Positions 3,727 through 8,193 of a stretch of DNA of 10,854 nt are shown here, piece by piece. Within the stretch, counting starts at the first letter, position 1; every line of letters begins with the position of its first letter. The notes below the pieces were generated by a model, which was not told the origin of the DNA, made no database searches, and saw only the letters and a program-made list of their open reading frames with translations. Source of the DNA: a virus; UHGV virus genome UHGV-0113369. One strand, 5' to 3'. Position numbers and translations under genes: made by a program.

Positions 3727-4668
3727 TCACCCCCTGAATCCTGCCGGGATCTGGCTGTAGTCCACGTTGTCGTAACTGGATTTGAAGTACGGATCTTCAC
3801 GTTTTTCTGTGTATGTGCTGACGGACGGCGATAAGCGCAGGGAAAGCTCATCCCATTTTTCCCGCAGCTTCGACGGGCTGAGCACGTTACGGCACCAGAA
3901 CGGATCGCGGCTGACGCGGCTGTACATCTCGCAGATTTGTTTGTGAGTACGACCATCCTGCACACACATCAGGCGAATTTCGTTTGCCCAGGCTGTCCAG
4001 TTCGGTTCTTTGGGACGAACCACCTCGCCGTCACATTCGGCAGCCTGCTCGTACAGGGCGATGATTTTTTTCCAGAGCCACTGTGCGCAGGTCAAATCAT
4101 CCTGCGTTCCCCACTGGCGCTTTTTAGGGCTGAATACAACCGCATCAGGATGGCGAGTTAAAAAATCCTGTTCAGCCGTCTGCGTGTCCGGTTGCGAAGC
4201 GTCCGGACGAGAAGGTTTTTTATCTGACGGTTCATGTTTTGATTTTACTGACGGATCCCCGCCAGATTCTGACGGGTGAAAACCCGCTTTTTTGCCAGAT
4301 TTCGACGCATCAAATTTTGACGGGTCAGATTTTGATGCGTCAGATTTTGACGGGTCAGAATCTGACAGTTGAGAAAATGCCGCTGCCTGAAGCTTCGCAA
4401 CGTTAAGCTGATAAACATTCGACGCATTGCGGTTACCCTGGCGACGCGCCTTACGCGTTAACCAGCCTTCTGCTTCCAGCCGTGCGATAGCCGTTCTGAC
4501 GGTACTCATCCCCGCGCCAATCTGACGGGCAATGGTTTCAATTGATGGCCAGCACACACCTTCGTCATTACTGAAATCAGCCAGGCGGGCCATAATTGCC
4601 ACGCTGGATAATTTCATGCCTGACGCAGCGCAACCATCCCATACATAGCCGGTTAATTTAGTGCTCAT
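3727..4668 (-). CDS. Phage replication initiation protein (N-terminal HTH, lambda O-like role) with internal pentapeptide repeats
   Basis: 313-aa ORF. N-terminal 90 aa look like a winged-helix/HTH replication-initiator domain. Central low-complexity repeat DPSKS/DASKS/DPSKF/DASKS is encoded by a 15-bp tandem DNA repeat. RBS GAGG 6 nt upstream of ATG 4668. Confidence 0.7.
   Translation of the reverse strand: MSTKLTGYVWDGCAASGMKLSSVAIMARLADFSNDEGVCWPSIETIARQIGAGMSTVRTAIARLEAEGWLTRKARRQGNRNASNVYQLNVAKLQAAAFSQLSDSDPSKSDASKSDPSKFDASKSGKKAGFHPSESGGDPSVKSKHEPSDKKPSRPDASQPDTQTAEQDFLTRHPDAVVFSPKKRQWGTQDDLTCAQWLWKKIIALYEQAAECDGEVVRPKEPNWTAWANEIRLMCVQDGRTHKQICEMYSRVSRDPFWCRNVLSPSKLREKWDELSLRLSPSVSTYTEKREDPYFKSSYDNVDYSQIPAGFRG
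4220..4368. repeat. Iteron array (candidate origin of replication) inside the initiator gene
   Basis: Four to five contiguous 15-bp units YCAGATTTTGACGGG at 4295-4368, another copy at 4262-4276, and degenerate copies near 4222-4254 (TATCTGACGG, TTTTACTGACGG). This parallels lambda ori iterons lying within gene O. Confidence 0.6.
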
Positions 4669-4677
4669 GACCGACCT

Positions 4678-5016
4678 CTATTTCCCTGAATTTACGACGA
4701 AACTGTTCGAGCGGGCTGAAGCATTCATGCTCATAGCCTTCGCGGAGGTAGATAACCCGTTGTGTTTCCGGTTCCCAACGAATGACTCTGACGGGCACTC
4801 CGTAGTGATCTTTGAACCAGCGGTTAACTTGTCGCAAAGGACTGTCTCCTTCTGCCGGTTGAAATCACCCACAGCCCACTCTGCAAAGCTGTGGGTTACA
4901 ATTTCCCTGTCACCTGGTACATTTACTGCATAGCAATACTCCACCTTCGCTTTTCCACCCGGTACAGGAAGCGCAATCAGTTGCGAGCGACGGTAGTGTG
5001 TTGTTAAACTGTTCAT
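4678..5016 (-). CDS. Hypothetical protein (uncertain coding status)
   Basis: 112-aa ORF whose ATG (5016-5014) overlaps the CII-like stop (ATGA). No recognisable motif. It contains an 8-bp GC-rich hairpin (4868-4895) and is overlapped by an antisense plus-strand ORF. Confidence 0.3.
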
Positions 5017-5597
5017 GCGTTAGTTTCTCCACAACCAGAAGCAATCGACGCCACGACGCCCGGAGCTGCACACTCGCGGGCGTTACTCTTTTCCGGCGCA
5101 CAAAAAACACGAAATAACAGTGTTAAATGCTCCTGCCACTTCGCCATTACTTGGTAGCTGTTCTCTTCGATTTGCTCACGCTCAGCTTGGTCAATAACTC
5201 CATCAGCAGTTGCCTTGCGTAAGTACTGGGAATGCTTGCCAATCCATTCTATTGACTCCATCAGCCGCTGATTAATGTCACCATTGTCAATGTCATCAAT
5301 GACCACCAGCGGCACAAACACCCCATTACTACGACGGGCTATTGCATCCGTTACATGCCTGGTACCACTGGCATCCTGTAAAACCATGGCCCACTCAAGT
5401 GGAAAAATTTGATCCCCACCGCTACGCAGTCTGTTATGCAATTGATCTTTCGCTGGGGTGATATCATCAGATTTATACAAACCAAGAATTTCCGCTGCTT
5501 CCTCATAGCCATGAGGTAAATCAGCAATCGTTCTTCGTATTGCTGCCACCAGCCATGCTGGTTGCTTATCAACTTTCCATTCAGGTTCTTTACCCAC
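5013..5597 (-). CDS. CII-like lysogeny regulator (CP76/YdaT-type), GTG start
   Basis: 194-aa ORF immediately downstream of the cro-like gene, the position of lambda cII. GTG start at 5597 with GAGG 7 nt upstream. Family assignment is by recollection of Phage_CP76-type proteins and is tentative. Confidence 0.45.
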
Positions 5598-5633: not shown

Positions 5634-5834
5634 TTATCCATTAGATTTTTCATAAAGCTCAGGTTTAAATGGCAACCGTCCGCAAGTTCTATATGCAGCC
5701 TCTGCTGCACGTCCTTTTGGAATTAACTGGCCAGGACGGTTTCGCCACTGATAAACGGCTTCAGTTGTTATGCCGAAAAAAGCAGCAACTTTCTCAATGC
5801 TGCCGAAGTAGCTTTCGATATCGTCAGTCGTCAT
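5634..5834 (-). CDS. cro: Cro-like repressor
   Basis: 66-aa basic protein divergent from the CI gene. Strong RBS GGAGG 4 nt before ATG 5834. Some resemblance to lambda Cro in the central/C-terminal region (AVYQW...GRAAEAAYRTCG). Confidence 0.6.
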   Translation of the reverse strand: MTTDDIESYFGSIEKVAAFFGITTEAVYQWRNRPGQLIPKGRAAEAAYRTCGRLPFKPELYEKSNG

Positions 5835-5931
5835 ATGCCCTCCAAACTAAGTTTTATTAGATGTTAATTATCAATCTATCTTAGGTCAATAAAAACTAAG
5901 ATTACTTAGTAATTAAAGAAATGGTGCTCCT
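5835..5931. promoter_or_regulatory. Immunity-region OR: divergent pR/pRM promoters with AACTAAG-type operator palindromes
   Basis: AT-rich 97-bp spacer between divergent cro-like and cI genes. 11-bp palindrome AAACTAAGTTT at 5844-5854 and 16-bp palindrome ACTAAGATTACTTAGT at 5895-5910. Candidate pR on the minus strand: -35 TTGACC (5889-5884), 17-bp spacer, -10 TAACAT (5866-5861). Confidence 0.55.
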
Positions 5932-6558
5932 ATGGAAACGGTTGGTCAGCGTATAAAAGCTCTGAGAAGAGTTACCAGAACGTCCCAGAAAGAATTGGGT
6001 AAATTTTGTGGAGTAAGTGACGTTGCTGTGGGGTACTGGGAGAAAGACATCAATGTCCCTGGTGGGGAAGCACTTTCAAAATTAGCGAAGTTCTTCAATA
6101 CGTCAATAGATTACATTCTTTATGGTGCGGAGTTTGAAGGCAAACTCGTCACAAACATGCGCAGAGTTCCTGTAATCTCGTGGGTTCAGGCTGGGCAGTT
6201 TACTGAGTGCAGGACAGCAGAAGTGTTTAGTGAAGTAGACAAGTGGGTAGATACATCATTAAAGATTGGTGATAACTCATTTGCATTGGAGGTTAAAGGC
6301 GACTCCATGACTAACCCTAACGGCCTCCCAACAATACCAGAAGGCGCAACAGTGATTGTAGATCCTGATGCAGAGCCCCGGCATGGAAAAATAGTCATCG
6401 CTAGACTTGATGGAACAAACGAAGCCACAGTAAAAAAATTAGTTATCGATGGCCCTCAAAAGTTTTTAGTGCCATTAAATCCCCGGTACCCCAACATCCC
6501 GATCAATGGTAATTGCCTCATCATTGGTGTAGTCAAAGGAGTTCAATACGAACTCTAG
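5932..6558 (+). CDS. cI: CI-type prophage repressor (HTH_XRE N-terminal domain + S24 LexA-like autopeptidase domain)
   Basis: 208-aa ORF. N-terminal HTH (QKELGKFCGVSDVAVGYWEKD). C-terminal S24 peptidase motifs (EVKGDSMTNP with catalytic Ser; KKL with catalytic Lys). Divergent from the cro-like gene. Weak or absent SD, consistent with a near-leaderless pRM transcript as in lambda. Confidence 0.9.
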   Translation: METVGQRIKALRRVTRTSQKELGKFCGVSDVAVGYWEKDINVPGGEALSKLAKFFNTSIDYILYGAEFEGKLVTNMRRVPVISWVQAGQFTECRTAEVFSEVDKWVDTSLKIGDNSFALEVKGDSMTNPNGLPTIPEGATVIVDPDAEPRHGKIVIARLDGTNEATVKKLVIDGPQKFLVPLNPRYPNIPINGNCLIIGVVKGVQYEL

Positions 6559-6576: not shown

Positions 6577-6613
6577 AAAACACCGAACTAAGAAAAGTTT
6601 GGTGTTTTCTCTT
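6577..6613 (+). terminator. Putative intrinsic terminator downstream of cI
   Basis: Stem AAAACACCGAAC (6577-6588) pairs with GTTTGGTGTTTT (6597-6608) including one G-U; 8-nt loop; followed by TTTTCTCTT. Stem is A/U-rich so strength is uncertain; it may instead be part of the OL operator region. Confidence 0.4.
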
Positions 6614-6640
6614 GCCATTAAAACTAAGTTAAGTTAGATT
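6612..6640 (+). promoter_or_regulatory. Candidate pL-like promoter overlapping an OL-like operator
   Basis: -35 TTGCCA (6612-6617), 17-bp spacer, -10 TAGATT (6635-6640). The spacer and -10 contain AAACTAAGTTAAGTTAG, the same AACTAAG motif seen in the cI-cro intergenic operators. Confidence 0.35.
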
Positions 6641-6742
6641 TTATATCAAAGATAACGAACAGGTAGGACGCCCACGAAGTAGCCGCCGGTGGCGTATGAA
6701 TGACCGGATGATTCGTTAAATACTATGTGTAAGAGAGCGCAA

Positions 6743-6946
6743 ATGAACCGTTATTTCACATGCTCGTTTTGTGGCGCAAACGAGCTGCAGGCAAAAAAAA
6801 TCATCGCCAAAGGCGGAAAAGATGAAGTTGCTATCTGCTCTGAGTGCGTAGTCTTGTGTGTCGGGGCATTAATCGATATCAGCACAACTATTCAGTTCAC
6901 ACCAAATGAGAATGCGCCTTTAGATGCGCGGAAATCTGGAGGTTAA
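6743..6946 (+). CDS. Free-standing ClpX-type C4 zinc-finger (ClpX N-terminal ZBD-like) small protein
   Basis: 67 aa from ATG 6743 (RBS AAGAGAG 5 nt upstream). CSFCG...KIIAKGG...ICSECVVLC aligns by eye with the E. coli ClpX N-terminal zinc-binding domain ([30 protein letters not shown]). No AAA+ ATPase domain follows. Confidence 0.6.
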   Translation: MNRYFTCSFCGANELQAKKIIAKGGKDEVAICSECVVLCVGALIDISTTIQFTPNENAPLDARKSGG

Positions 6947-6954
6947 AGAACAAA

Positions 6955-7230
6955 ATGAAAGTCCAGATTTTAAACAATAGTGGTGAAGTCGTTTGGTCAT
7001 ACGACATAGCCGCTACTGTAGATCAGAGCGGCGATAGCTGGACCAATGGGAAACATCAGATTATGGCTGGAGTTGTGTTCTCTTTACGCCGTGCTTTAGA
7101 ACAGGCTGAAGTCTTTCCATCAGACCCTGAATGGAAATGGCCTTTTTCTATTTGTCCAAATTCGGAGAGTACATTTCAGAAAATTGGTCAGAAAGTCGCA
7201 CTCGAAGAGCATCAGCCAACTGTTTCCTGA
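6955..7230 (+). CDS. Hypothetical protein (91 aa)
   Basis: ORF with GGAGG 11 nt upstream of ATG 6955. No recognisable motif. The last ~27 codons overlap the convergent 81-aa gene, so the true 3' end is uncertain. Confidence 0.4.
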   Translation: MKVQILNNSGEVVWSYDIAATVDQSGDSWTNGKHQIMAGVVFSLRRALEQAEVFPSDPEWKWPFSICPNSESTFQKIGQKVALEEHQPTVS

Positions 7231-7393
7231 TTTTTTCAGGTAACTCGTCGGCATCGCAGAAACAACAACGCTCGATCATGTTGAAAGCTGATTCGTAGAA
7301 CTGTTTTTGCTGAGTGTCGCTGAGACAGGAAAAGAGCGACGTTACGATGATTTTATTAATTGCATTATCAAGTTCTTTTTCATCAAAAGTCAT
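7148..7393 (-). CDS. Hypothetical protein (81 aa), convergent to neighbours
   Basis: ORF with good RBS (AAAAGGAAAA, 7-8 nt spacing) before ATG 7393. Acidic/helical-looking sequence with a CCFC motif. Opposite orientation to the surrounding plus-strand genes. Confidence 0.5.
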   Translation of the reverse strand: MTFDEKELDNAINKIIVTSLFSCLSDTQQKQFYESAFNMIERCCFCDADELPEKIRKQLADALRVRLSDQFSEMYSPNLDK

Positions 7394-7646
7394 TTGATTT
7401 TCCTTTTATGTATACGGGCTTAAAAGGATACCACCGAGCCTGAAGTGGTGAAAAGACAGGCACATAACAGCTAAGTATTTTCAACCAGAGAGAATCCTTA
7501 GCGTTGTGGTGAATGCGGCTCAGCGCACGCGGGTTAAGGTTGAGGCTGACAGTCGACCTTCTGTGGATACCCACCCGCCTGGTGTGCAACCTTCGCCAGG
7601 CACCGGGAGGCACCCGGCACCACAACTTTATGCTGTGTGTAGTCTT

Positions 7647-7693
7647 GGCGGTACCAGCTTGTACCCTTGCTTCCGGCTGGTACCGTCCTTTTT
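7647..7693 (+). terminator. Intrinsic terminator-like hairpin in the leader upstream of the yfdP-like gene
   Basis: Perfect 10-bp stem CGGTACCAGC (7649-7658) / GCTGGTACCG (7676-7685), extendable by G-C and G-U pairs, loop ~15 nt, followed 3 nt later by TTTTT (7689-7693). Confidence 0.5.
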
Positions 7694-7782
7694 ACAAAAC
7701 AGAGAAGAGCATCACCGGACGACGGGCTCATAACCCAATCCATCCGGGCGGCAGTCACCGCAGGTGTTCTTCTCTGTTTTGT
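7694..7782. repeat. 20-bp imperfect inverted repeat pair flanking 49 bp
   Basis: ACAAAACAGAGAAGAGCATC (7694-7713) is the reverse complement of GGTGTTCTTCTCTGTTTTGT (7763-7782) apart from two G-T positions. The enclosed segment is GC-rich. Confidence 0.55.
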
Positions 7783-7830
7783 GGAGAAACTAACCGACCT
7801 TGCAGGGTCGATATGATGAGGAGCAGCAAA

Positions 7831-8193
7831 ATGGCTAGCGAACGCAGTACTGATGTGCAGGCATTTATCGGGGAGCTGGACGGCGGCGTATTTGAAACCA
7901 AAATCGGCGCAGTTCTCAGTGAAGTCGCTTCCGGTGTGATGAACACGAAAACCAAAGGTAAGGTCTCGCTCAACCTGGAAATCGAACCGTTTGATGAGAA
8001 CCGAGTGAAAATCAAACACAAACTCTCATATGTTCGCCCGACTAACCGCGGGAAAATTTCCGAAGAAGACACCACCGAAACGCCGATGTATGTCAATCGC
8101 GGTGGTCGCCTGACTATTCTGCAGGAAGACCAGGGACAGTTACTGACTCTTGCCGGTGAACCTGACGGAAAACTCCGCGCAGCAGGTCGTTAA
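7831..8193 (+). CDS. yfdP: YfdP-like prophage protein (120 aa)
   Basis: RBS AGGAG 7 nt upstream of ATG 7831. Length (120 aa) and position immediately upstream of a yfdQ-like gene match my recollection of CPS-53 yfdP. Upstream in-frame ATGs at 7813/7816 lack an RBS. Confidence 0.5.
   Translation: MASERSTDVQAFIGELDGGVFETKIGAVLSEVASGVMNTKTKGKVSLNLEIEPFDENRVKIKHKLSYVRPTNRGKISEEDTTETPMYVNRGGRLTILQEDQGQLLTLAGEPDGKLRAAGR

Follow-up and report, generated by a model that had tools for sequence, protein, structure and literature searches.

What is encoded by the G+C-rich segment that separates the small open reading frames (ORFs) of a lambdoid immunity region from the gene yfdP? The question arises in UHGV virus genome UHGV-0113369, of which one stretch of 10,854 nt (the window, to which all coordinates refer) was analyzed. 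An earlier reading of its letters and ORFs (the sequence-only reading) had placed a structured non-coding element at 7494–7830 and had offered three roles for it: a cis-acting antitermination RNA analogous to HK022 put, an attenuator or riboswitch-like leader, or an independent small RNA (sRNA). We report that 7470–7830 on the plus strand is a chain of RNA structures, confirmed by its conservation through compensatory changes in homologues. The element is very probably a non-coding, STnc100-class structured RNA plus an intrinsic terminator. Most likely, it is built like the known dicF locus, in which an sRNA with a terminator is followed by an RNA-processing hairpin, and is not a wholly new sort of element. 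The segment most likely forms the non-coding center of the repressor-controlled early-left (PL) operon of an SfV-like lambdoid prophage.

Extent and folding of the element

Fold z-scores were taken against dinucleotide shuffles, with 100 shuffles for the whole region. Positions 7460–7835 fold to −163 kcal/mol, compared with −124 ± 5.6 kcal/mol in the shuffles (z = −7.1). None of the 100 shuffles folds as well, and the minimum-free-energy and centroid predictions give one agreed structure. Taken singly, the modules fold with z-scores of −3 to −8, and their helices are kept in homologues by compensatory changes. The compositional contrast described by the sequence-only reading is real: the G+C fraction is 0.55–0.585 across 7500–7800 versus 0.37–0.45 in the flanking immunity region. 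So is every repeat and hairpin that it listed, each of which is placed below. The proposed start does not hold. Specifically, the structured element begins at 7470, not 7494, as one hairpin and the closing stem of the core had been overlooked. That hairpin, A (7470–7502, plus strand), is a 13-bp stem with one mismatch that abuts the core closing stem. It folds to −10.4 kcal/mol (z = −4.8) and is the 5' boundary of the structured RNA. Homologues hold a long hairpin of differing sequence at the same site: GAUAAGAG...CUCUUAUC in ST64B, GAAGCGCAUU...AAUGCGCUUC in phiES15, and GAGCACUUUGG.../AGUGCUCU in Pantoea.

An STnc100-type core

The core (7503–7626, plus strand; z = −3.1) comprises five helices and a pseudoknot. 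The closing stem, P1, joins 7503–7511 (GTTGTGGTG) to 7618–7626 (CACCACAAC) through 9 bp. P2 (7515–7530) carries a UCAGC pentaloop. P3 pairs 7529–7534 with 7573–7578, which is the GCGGGT/ACCCGC repeat of the sequence-only reading, and P4 pairs 7577–7584 with 7594–7601. P5 (7603–7607 with 7613–7617), around an AGGCA pentaloop, corresponds to the CCGGG/CCCGG repeat of that reading. Finally, 7536–7542 (AAGGUUG) forms a pseudoknot with the P4 loop at 7587–7593 (CAACCUU).

A scan of the whole window against Rfam at gathering thresholds yields nothing, whereas a permissive scan matches STnc100 (RF02076) from end to end. The full-length match, 7473–7696, scores 43.4 bits (E = 4.3e-8), 3.6 bits under the gathering score of 47, which leaves it outside formal membership. 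Homologues score 35.1 (ST64B), 29.2 (e14), and 34.1 (Qin) bits. The STnc100 hallmark motifs are present in the window: GGTGAAT at 7507–7513, and the 7603–7617 hairpin directly abutting CACCA at 7618–7622. A pattern made from the conserved ends (GGTGAAT ... CCGGGAGGCACCCGGCACCA) finds more than 120 viral contigs with 72 distinct cores, and all 72 carry identical GGUGAAU-junction and CCGGG-AGGCA-CCCGG/CACCA motifs. Across the distinct cores, the first hairpin, P2, keeps a UNNGC pentaloop on stems of differing sequence, and a short helix flanks a hypervariable middle. The P1 extension is compensated from GC to AU in 14 of 35 sequences, and P2 and P3 covary with 4–6 double changes.

A close "GCGGC" subtype consists of the window, ST64B, phiES15, Qin, and Pantoea and Enterobacter prophages, and compensatory variants occur in each helix. 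P1 is GUUGUGGUG/CACCACAAC in some and GUUGCGGUG/CACCGCAAC in others. P3 appears as GGGU/ACCC, GGGG/CCCC, GGAA/UUCC, and GGGGAAA/UUUCCCC; P4 also shows compensatory variants; and P5 changes to CCUGG/CCAGG in Qin, UCGGG/CCCGA in Enterobacter, and GGUGG/CCACC in contigs L179 and L209. The pseudoknot becomes AAGGCUG/CAGCCUU in phiES15 and is 11 bp long in contig L016. An alignment of the 11 closest cores made with MAFFT is structurally inconsistent in the variable middle, and per-sequence and cognate/non-cognate tests were used in place of column pair counts. In the pseudoknot test, pairing with a member's own loop averages 7.8 bp, compared with 6.0 bp for the loops of other members, and the observed value is reached by none of 5000 permutations.

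Two STnc100-type cores lie 170–960 nt apart in each of eight contigs (L011, L022, L025, L037, L054, L072, L077, and L122). The paired cores differ in their variable middles, as if specificity were diversifying.

STnc100 is a prophage sRNA whose function is unknown in the literature. PasD, an abundant, Hfq-bound, northern-validated sRNA of enteropathogenic Escherichia coli, is reported to share STnc100 ancestry (bioRxiv 10.64898/2026.05.13.724894). Many members found by the pattern possess a TTGACA-17-TAAATT promoter ending a few bases before P1, and in many the core is followed by a single-stranded stretch and a terminator. Thus, those members are ordinary sRNA genes. In the window, a crude consensus scan of 7394–7502 finds no sigma-70-like site before the core, and the ~80 nt upstream of the element are not conserved between homologues. 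Judged from sequence, the window sRNA is most likely made from the PL transcript rather than from a promoter of its own. Of the roles first proposed, the sRNA is the best supported, through the STnc100 match and the terminator; "independent" is probably wrong, there being no recognizable promoter.

A non-coding segment annotated as protein

The statement that no credible ORF spans the segment needs qualification. An ORF does exist, 7513–8193, and runs in frame into yfdP, to which it would add a 106-aa extension; what stands is that it lacks a coding signature. In RefSeq, the e14 copy carries the name YmfH, and many other copies are listed as "hypothetical protein". When the window is compared with ST64B, the three codon positions take nearly equal shares of the substitutions (24/26/25). 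Indels measure 1, 1, 8, 15, and 20 nt and do not keep to multiples of three. In several homologues (phiES15, mEp460, and Qin), stops interrupt all six frames. The first part of the e14 ORF is read in another frame, and the 106-aa extension has no PHROG match. By these sequence measures, the segment is non-coding, and the "YmfH" of e14 is this RNA element.

In e14 (contig L002, 4079–4390), "ymfH" covers the core, the terminator, and the hairpin that follows them. This copy has a 1-nt deletion and a G-to-A change in the P5 hairpin and may be decaying. A preprint lists ymfH overexpression among the triggers of RcaT, the toxin of retron-Sen2. The trigger may be an RNA rather than the YmfH protein; our search of the literature on ymfH and yfdP found no RNA-level data.

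A conserved linker and a DicF-like terminator

The core is followed on the plus strand by a 20-nt linker (7627–7646; UUUAUGCUGUGUGUAGUCUU) that is unpaired in all folds. E. coli, Salmonella ST64B, and Cronobacter phiES15 all carry the motif UGCUGUGUG(U/A)AGUCUU, which also occurs in Citrobacter phiNP despite a differing core and ahead of differing terminators. In the Rfam alignment, the linker falls where DicF has its 5' region. Its constancy where the core (phiNP) or the terminator (phiES15) differs is a seed-like pattern and thus favors an Hfq-assisted role in trans. The linker is a candidate base-pairing seed and would be a likely RNase E entry site.

Terminator C (7647–7693, plus strand) is the terminator-like hairpin of the sequence-only reading. 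It has a 13-bp stem (7647–7659 with 7675–7687), a 15-nt loop, and T5 at 7689–7693, and folds to −23 kcal/mol (z = −4.45 over 7645–7693). Terminator stems differ among homologues, yet T5–T8 always follows. The stem GGCGGUACCAG is identical to DicF GGCGGUAUCAG at 10 of 11 positions. The Rfam DicF model (RF00039) matches 7634–7688 with 19.4 bits (E = 0.12), far below its gathering score of 48, and the same slot in homologues also stays under 48 (30.3 in L140, 29.1 in L179, 28.5 in e14, and 20.5 in another). To judge by sequence, terminator C shows a resemblance to the DicF hairpin module and is not a DicF family member. Its loop, CUUGUACCCUUGCUUCC, lacks the AGUUU(U/C)(A/U)CUCC motif complementary to the ftsZ start.

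In the homologous terminator slot of contig L140 (5588–5638, minus strand), the loop reads AGUUUCUCUCC, complementary without mismatch over 11 nt to the E. coli ftsZ start region GGAGAGAAACU. With such a loop, some relatives may still act as DicF-type division inhibitors.

As to attenuation, the sequence-only reading was right only in the trivial sense that a strong terminator precedes yfdP; no alternative antiterminator pairing was seen for either terminator arm in the homologue alignments, by eye and with no systematic search. Its riboswitch-like leader finds no support, the element having no riboswitch or other cis-regulatory match in Rfam.

Hairpin D and the yfdP leader

Hairpin D (7694–7782, plus strand) begins at the base right after the T5 of terminator C. 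It consists of a 20-bp outer stem, a conserved inner hairpin (CCGGACGACGGGCUCAUAACCCAAUCCAUCCGG), and a variable second inner hairpin. The outer stem is the long-range stem noticed at 7694–7713 with 7763–7782, and its arms can be extended to 25 nt. D folds to −45.5 kcal/mol (z = −8.3) and has no Rfam match. Homologues were gathered through the conserved inner hairpin and reduced to 26 non-redundant copies. Across these copies, 95.5% of cells are paired, compared with at most 49% when partners are slid, and nine pairs show changes on both sides (e.g., G-C to C-G in 11 sequences and A-U to G-C in 5). The minus strand folds almost as well (z = −6.9). Nonetheless, a U.G wobble at the base of the D junction is present in 24 of 26 copies and further G.U pairs occur; these would be A.C mismatches on the minus strand, and thus D is a plus-strand RNA. 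The T-run of the terminator and the Rfam matches, all on the plus strand, support this assignment. Of 102 distinct contexts of D, 100 have a T-run no more than 12 nt before it. By analogy, we propose that D is an RNase III processing site.

The leader proper (7783–7830, plus strand) contains the motif GGAGAAAC at 7783–7790, hairpin E (7795–7800 with 7805–7810, loop UGCA), and the Shine–Dalgarno (SD) sequence GAGGAG at 7819–7824, ahead of the ATG at 7831. The sequence-only reading had given E 5 bp; it has 6, and the ribosome-binding site noted there is present. E has a z-score of −3.45 (7791–7814). A hairpin stands at this site in 44 of 48 distinct contexts on unrelated stems (CGACC/GGUCG, GGCGG/CCGCC, GCGCC/GGCGU), with GCAG at its loop in 37 of the 48. 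In Pantoea prophages (L237/L238/L240), GGAGAAA and a UUGCAG-loop hairpin come directly after the core. The gene 3' of D and E varies: yfdP, sb37, an RdgC-like gene, or, in e14, xis. Thus, D and E belong to the leader, not to yfdP.

Other features of this region deserve mention. Ahead of the first early-left gene, whether or not hairpin D is present, GGAGAAA(C/U) followed by a (U/G)UGCAG-loop hairpin is found repeatedly. In contig L182 (9211–9337), hairpin D combines a 5' arm of the window type with the 3' arm of another lineage, with mismatches, and looks like a recombination junction within the hairpin. In the yfdP leader, GGAGAAACUA resembles the ftsZ start region GGAGAGAAACUA. A boxA/nut interpretation of D was rejected. 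The 3' arm, UGCUCUU, is boxA-like in many homologues; it covaries with the 5' arm (AAGAGCA/AAGGGCA/GAGAGCA), so it is the helix that is constrained. An RNase III site listed inside "yfdP" of K-12 (2473744) was set aside as irrelevant because CPS-53 has lost the element upstream of yfdP.

The early-left operon of an SfV-like prophage

The window is a lambdoid immunity region with 98% identity to Shigella phage SfV over 7400–7840. The minus strand encodes, in order, an HNH endonuclease, a regulator, RusA, an O-like replication protein (3727–4668), a CII-like protein (5013–5597), and cro (5634–5834). On the plus strand lie a LexA-type cI repressor (5932–6558), small ORFs at 6725–6946 and 6955–7230, the G+C-rich segment, and then yfdP (ATG at 7831), yfdQ/DUF2303, and yfdR. 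In SfV, the early-left operon runs on from yfdPQR to xis and int. The overall order is thereby cro, cI, an operator-bearing promoter, small ORFs, the element, yfdPQR, and, in SfV, xis-int.

A promoter-like TTGCCA-17-TAGATT (6612–6640, plus strand) lies directly downstream of the cI terminator hairpin (6577–6608) and overlaps the operator repeat AAACTAAGTTAAGTTAG at 6621–6644. Together, these features (6612–6644) mark the probable PL. The repeat, which begins AAACTAAG, has two further copies between cro and cI, at 5844 and 5893. By its sequence and position, the 6612–6640 site is probably PL, with a start at ~6647, and the likely source of the element-bearing transcript. The element starts ~820–850 nt downstream of this predicted start. 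The equivalent slot is filled in e14, ST64B, phiNP, phiES15, mEp460, and an Stx2a phage, and the element is matched in 2786 of 5426 complete E. coli genomes, about half.

Two side observations concern the same operons. The PL transcript faces an antisense ORF on the minus strand (7148–7393; 81 aa; phrog_3311), which overlaps plus-strand ORF 6955–7230 at the 3' end of the latter; PL transcription must pass head-on through the minus-strand ORF. The same layout, with ymfI against ymfJ, is found in e14. On the rightward (PR) side of ST64B (contig L003, 21–97, minus strand) lies an IsrK/C4-type antisense RNA (64.3 bits, above threshold) that adjoins the antirepressor-like gene sb41, with a c4 target-like match adjacent. 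It is a second RNA regulator in the same phage, unrelated to the element.

A second structured RNA near PL

The N-less phages ST64B, phiNP, mEp460, and an Stx2a phage have an ORF-free leader of 600–1000 nt. In the window, a 64-nt RNA (6654–6717, plus strand) with an invariant 24-nt center (AGGCAGGACGCCCACGAAGUAGCC) starts ~10 nt after the predicted PL start. Its 56 non-redundant copies each stand behind a promoter with operators, which are of many differing immunity types. The two stems have 132 double-change cells, compared with 34.7 ± 4.4 in shuffles, and 91% pairing, compared with at most 39% for slid partners. This PL-proximal RNA has no Rfam match. Searches with a covariance model recover a single copy in each phage, always on the PL side, and pick up neither HK022 putL nor putR; only chance short words are shared with the HK022 immunity region. 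The RNA lies upstream in 19 of 23 hairpin-D loci. By position only, 6654–6717 is a candidate processive antiterminator, and a better candidate than the element.

How the RNA may be made and act

The mechanism that we favor would begin with inactivation of the cI-like repressor, upon which transcription from PL (~6647) would proceed through the two small ORFs into the element. The RNA from 7503 to 7693 (191 nt) would fold as an sRNA made up of the pseudoknotted STnc100/PasD-type core, the 20-nt single-stranded stretch, and the DicF-like terminator hairpin with its U tail. Most polymerases would halt at terminator C, releasing the sRNA and limiting transcription into yfdP...xis-int. In transcripts that read through, an RNase III cut in hairpin D would free the same sRNA and give the downstream mRNA a defined 5' end just before GGAGAAAC, hairpin E, and the SD sequence. 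RNase E cleavage in the AU-rich linker could yield a shorter, DicF-sized form (~60–65 nt). The notion is that the sRNA would act in trans, with Hfq, through the conserved linker. As a complete account, comprising termination, an RNase III cut in D, and Hfq-assisted action in trans, we consider this mechanism somewhat probable.

Several points weigh against it. PL transcription of the window RNA, the cleavages, the dependence on Hfq, and the action in trans are steps that we infer. The scores of the core and of terminator C lie below the STnc100 and DicF thresholds. At just five U, the tail of terminator C is short by the measure of strong Hfq tails, and a search for linker targets within the window returned the linker itself only. 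Duplexfold against the ftsZ start region gives no signal for the window, in a weak test in which the DicF control was likewise not significant. In contig L181, hairpin D comes directly after the PL operators with no terminator between, a layout that implies a further role for D, independent of sRNA release. D has no sequence similarity to the stem that follows dicF in Qin, and that parallel is one of position and geometry only. Finally, the loops of the core are invariant, hinting at a specific partner, and our mechanism leaves that partner unnamed.

Alternative explanations

The alternative that survives best, although we judge it unlikely, is that the element acts purely in cis, as a transcriptional insulator or attenuator joined to an mRNA-processing and stability module, the upstream RNA having no function in trans. 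The terminator would throttle yfdP...xis-int, and D and E would set the 5' end and the translation of the mRNA, an equally unlikely arrangement in our estimate. A conserved, strong terminator does immediately precede the first gene, be it yfdP, sb37, an RdgC-like gene, or xis; D and E occur without the core in mEp460 and Stx2 phages; and the L181 layout and the lack of a linker target in the window fit as well. What purely cis action leaves unexplained is a covarying, pseudoknotted core and a linker conserved across differing cores and terminators. In addition, relatives of the core are free-standing promoter-to-terminator sRNA genes or, in the case of PasD, an Hfq-bound sRNA.

A more far-reaching proposal, which we regard as improbable, is that the entire PL leader of a widespread set of N-less lambdoid prophages (SfV, e14, ST64B, phiNP, and some Stx2 phages) is an RNA-only control system. 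If so, 6654–6717 would serve as a put-like processive antiterminator of a new class, taking polymerase through terminator C, and the core, tRNA-like and pseudoknotted, would bind a specific protein partner. That partner would be a processing enzyme or a host defense/anti-defense factor, the latter suggested by the report on e14 "ymfH" as a retron trigger; this part is just as speculative. So is the further corollary that a single modular leader architecture gives rise to DicF, STnc100, and PasD alike.

It is doubtful that the core is a tRNA-like domain that directs processing by RNase P or another tRNA-maturation enzyme, in the manner of the phage P4 CI RNA and the P1 C4 RNA, and it is as doubtful that such processing would free a regulatory RNA acting on the same operon. 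In favor of the idea, the layout of the core is cloverleaf-like: inside the closing stem, a 3-nt joint leads to P2, which resembles a D-arm, and the 5-bp P5 hairpin abuts the P1 3' strand without a linker. Moreover, a tRNA-like module in contig L179, behind a similar hairpin in the same leader, has an acceptor stem, GUUGUGGUG/CACCACA, that equals P1, a hint at a core of tRNA origin or a tRNA mimic. Against this idea, the window core has no tRNA, C4, or IsrK match at E up to 10, and neither ARAGORN nor a scan of the window for tRNA and transfer-messenger RNA returns anything. The P5 loop is 5 nt long instead of 7, a 3' CCA is lacking, and no stretch complementary to the core or linker was found further down the operon. 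Free-standing members begin at P1 and require no processing at the 5' end. In L179, where the features in question span 1797–1925 and 1930–2175, the module itself scores 40 bits as an Rfam tRNA, contains a 68-nt insertion, and is not reported by ARAGORN; T-arm-like hairpins (GGUUCGAUUCC) occur near it and also in phiNP.

Could the core instead be a processive antiterminator like HK022 put, carrying its RNA polymerase through terminator C and later terminators? The absence of an N gene from the N position, the long ORF-poor leader (600–1000 nt), invariant core loops that suggest a macromolecular partner, and the passage of a terminator that xis-int expression needs could all be read this way. 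The put analogy of the sequence-only reading nevertheless lacks support for this segment, and we consider it very unlikely. The element is ~850 nt from PL, whereas putL is promoter-proximal (PMC9378689). A blastn-short comparison with the HK022 immunity region returns chance 8–13-mers only, with no similarity to putL or putR, and pattern and model searches find no second copy on the PR side of the window. Family members are terminated, stand-alone sRNAs that possess promoters of their own; the related PasD builds up as a discrete sRNA; and 6654–6717 is better placed.

Finally, the prospect that the segment encodes a protein, either YmfH-like or a YfdP lengthened at its N-terminus by a start at the 7513 ATG, can for practical purposes be set aside: the open frame and the RefSeq names speak for it, and the codon-position counts, indels, shifting and interrupted frames, and absent PHROG match speak against it, as do the strong intrinsic terminator inside the supposed ORF and base changes that suit RNA helices.

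Implications

An annotation as protein (YmfH, "hypothetical protein") is corrected here to RNA, and experiments with "ymfH" clones are to be reread in that light. STnc100, PasD, and DicF, which have been described separately, are tied to one modular early-left architecture, and K-12's own dicF-dicB spacer contains an STnc100-like core. Two conserved motifs without an Rfam match, hairpin D and the PL-proximal RNA, are found in phages that lack the N antiterminator. How N-less phages get past the early terminator becomes directly testable. The underlying biology, production of an sRNA from a prophage operon by termination and RNase processing, is known, and a specialist would be only moderately surprised by it.

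Comparison with known systems

Like the element, HK022 put is a structured RNA of an N-less lambdoid phage, placed within the PL operon ahead of a terminator. It differs in distance (the element is not near PL), in architecture (put is a two-stem RNA of ~70 nt), and in its relatives, which for the element are terminated sRNAs. The PL-proximal RNA does share the position of put; it lacks a PR-side copy.

In phage lambda, the PL leader of the N gene contains an RNase III-sensitive hairpin. Hairpin D is likewise a large PL-leader hairpin directly upstream of the ribosome-binding site of the first early-left gene. The two have no sequence relation, and the phages considered here have neither N nor nut.

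STnc100 and PasD are the closest counterparts of the core. The window matches the 206-nt model end to end, and both are prophage-borne in enterobacteria. They have in common the GGUGAAU closing-stem junction, a UNNGC loop on the first hairpin, a middle part that is hypervariable, the CCGGG-AGGCA-CCCGG hairpin set directly against the P1 3' strand, and then a spacer and an intrinsic terminator. The window differs in its first hairpin and P3, which are of other sequence (the "GCGGC" subtype). It also differs in setting: typical STnc100 copies are stand-alone late-region genes, for example downstream of stx2 (PMC12370729), whereas the window copy has no detected promoter of its own and lies in the early-left operon next to the immunity region.

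The nearest counterpart of the locus as a whole is dicF of Qin, an early-left operon under the cI-like repressor DicA, where true dicF scores 76.7 bits. DicF is made by termination together with RNase III and RNase E processing; its forms include a 190-nt long form with a 5' end needing RNase III and a 53-nt form needing RNase E, and one of its 3' ends is an RNase III cut 19 nt past the terminated end (PMC5069750; bioRxiv 10.1101/2023.04.14.536235). An rnc-dependent site is listed in the dicF-dicB spacer (PMC5371410 Table S1). Upstream of dicF in Qin lies a core-like structured domain with GGUUGUGGC at its opening and ...GUGACAACCCCGCUGCAAC at its close, and the latter sequence also precedes terminator C in contigs L138 and L140. 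A 21-bp stem (GUGAAUUUUGUGAUG.../...CAUCACAAAAUUCAU) starts directly after the dicF U-tract and closes a "GCGGC"-type STnc100-like core (34 bits, E = 1e-5, below threshold), after which comes dicB (contig L234, 2447–2587). We note that this stem contains the RNase III 3' end published for the 72-nt DicF and that the recent STnc100/PasD preprint does not mention DicF.

The two loci differ in the order of their modules. Qin has a core variant, DicF, and a long stem enclosing a second core; the window has a core, a DicF-like module, and a long stem enclosing unrelated hairpins. The ftsZ-pairing loop of DicF (AGUUUUACUCC) is not kept in the window, although the L140 homologue has AGUUUCUCUCC. The likenesses are those of overall design. 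Both lie downstream of a cI-like repressor and an operator-controlled promoter, after small ORFs and before the first larger gene. Both sRNAs end in the terminator hairpin GGCGGUA(U/C)CAG. Both are associated with an upstream structured domain with a GUUGUGG... closing stem and with an adjacent STnc100-like core, and in both a stem of at least 20 bp (20 in the window, 21 in Qin) directly follows the U tract. Even the lengths correspond, the long form of DicF being 190 nt and the window span that starts with P1 and ends with the T-run (7503–7693) 191 nt. What is new here, then, is a dicF-like sRNA locus in which a sub-threshold STnc100/PasD-class body is joined to two leader motifs without an Rfam match.

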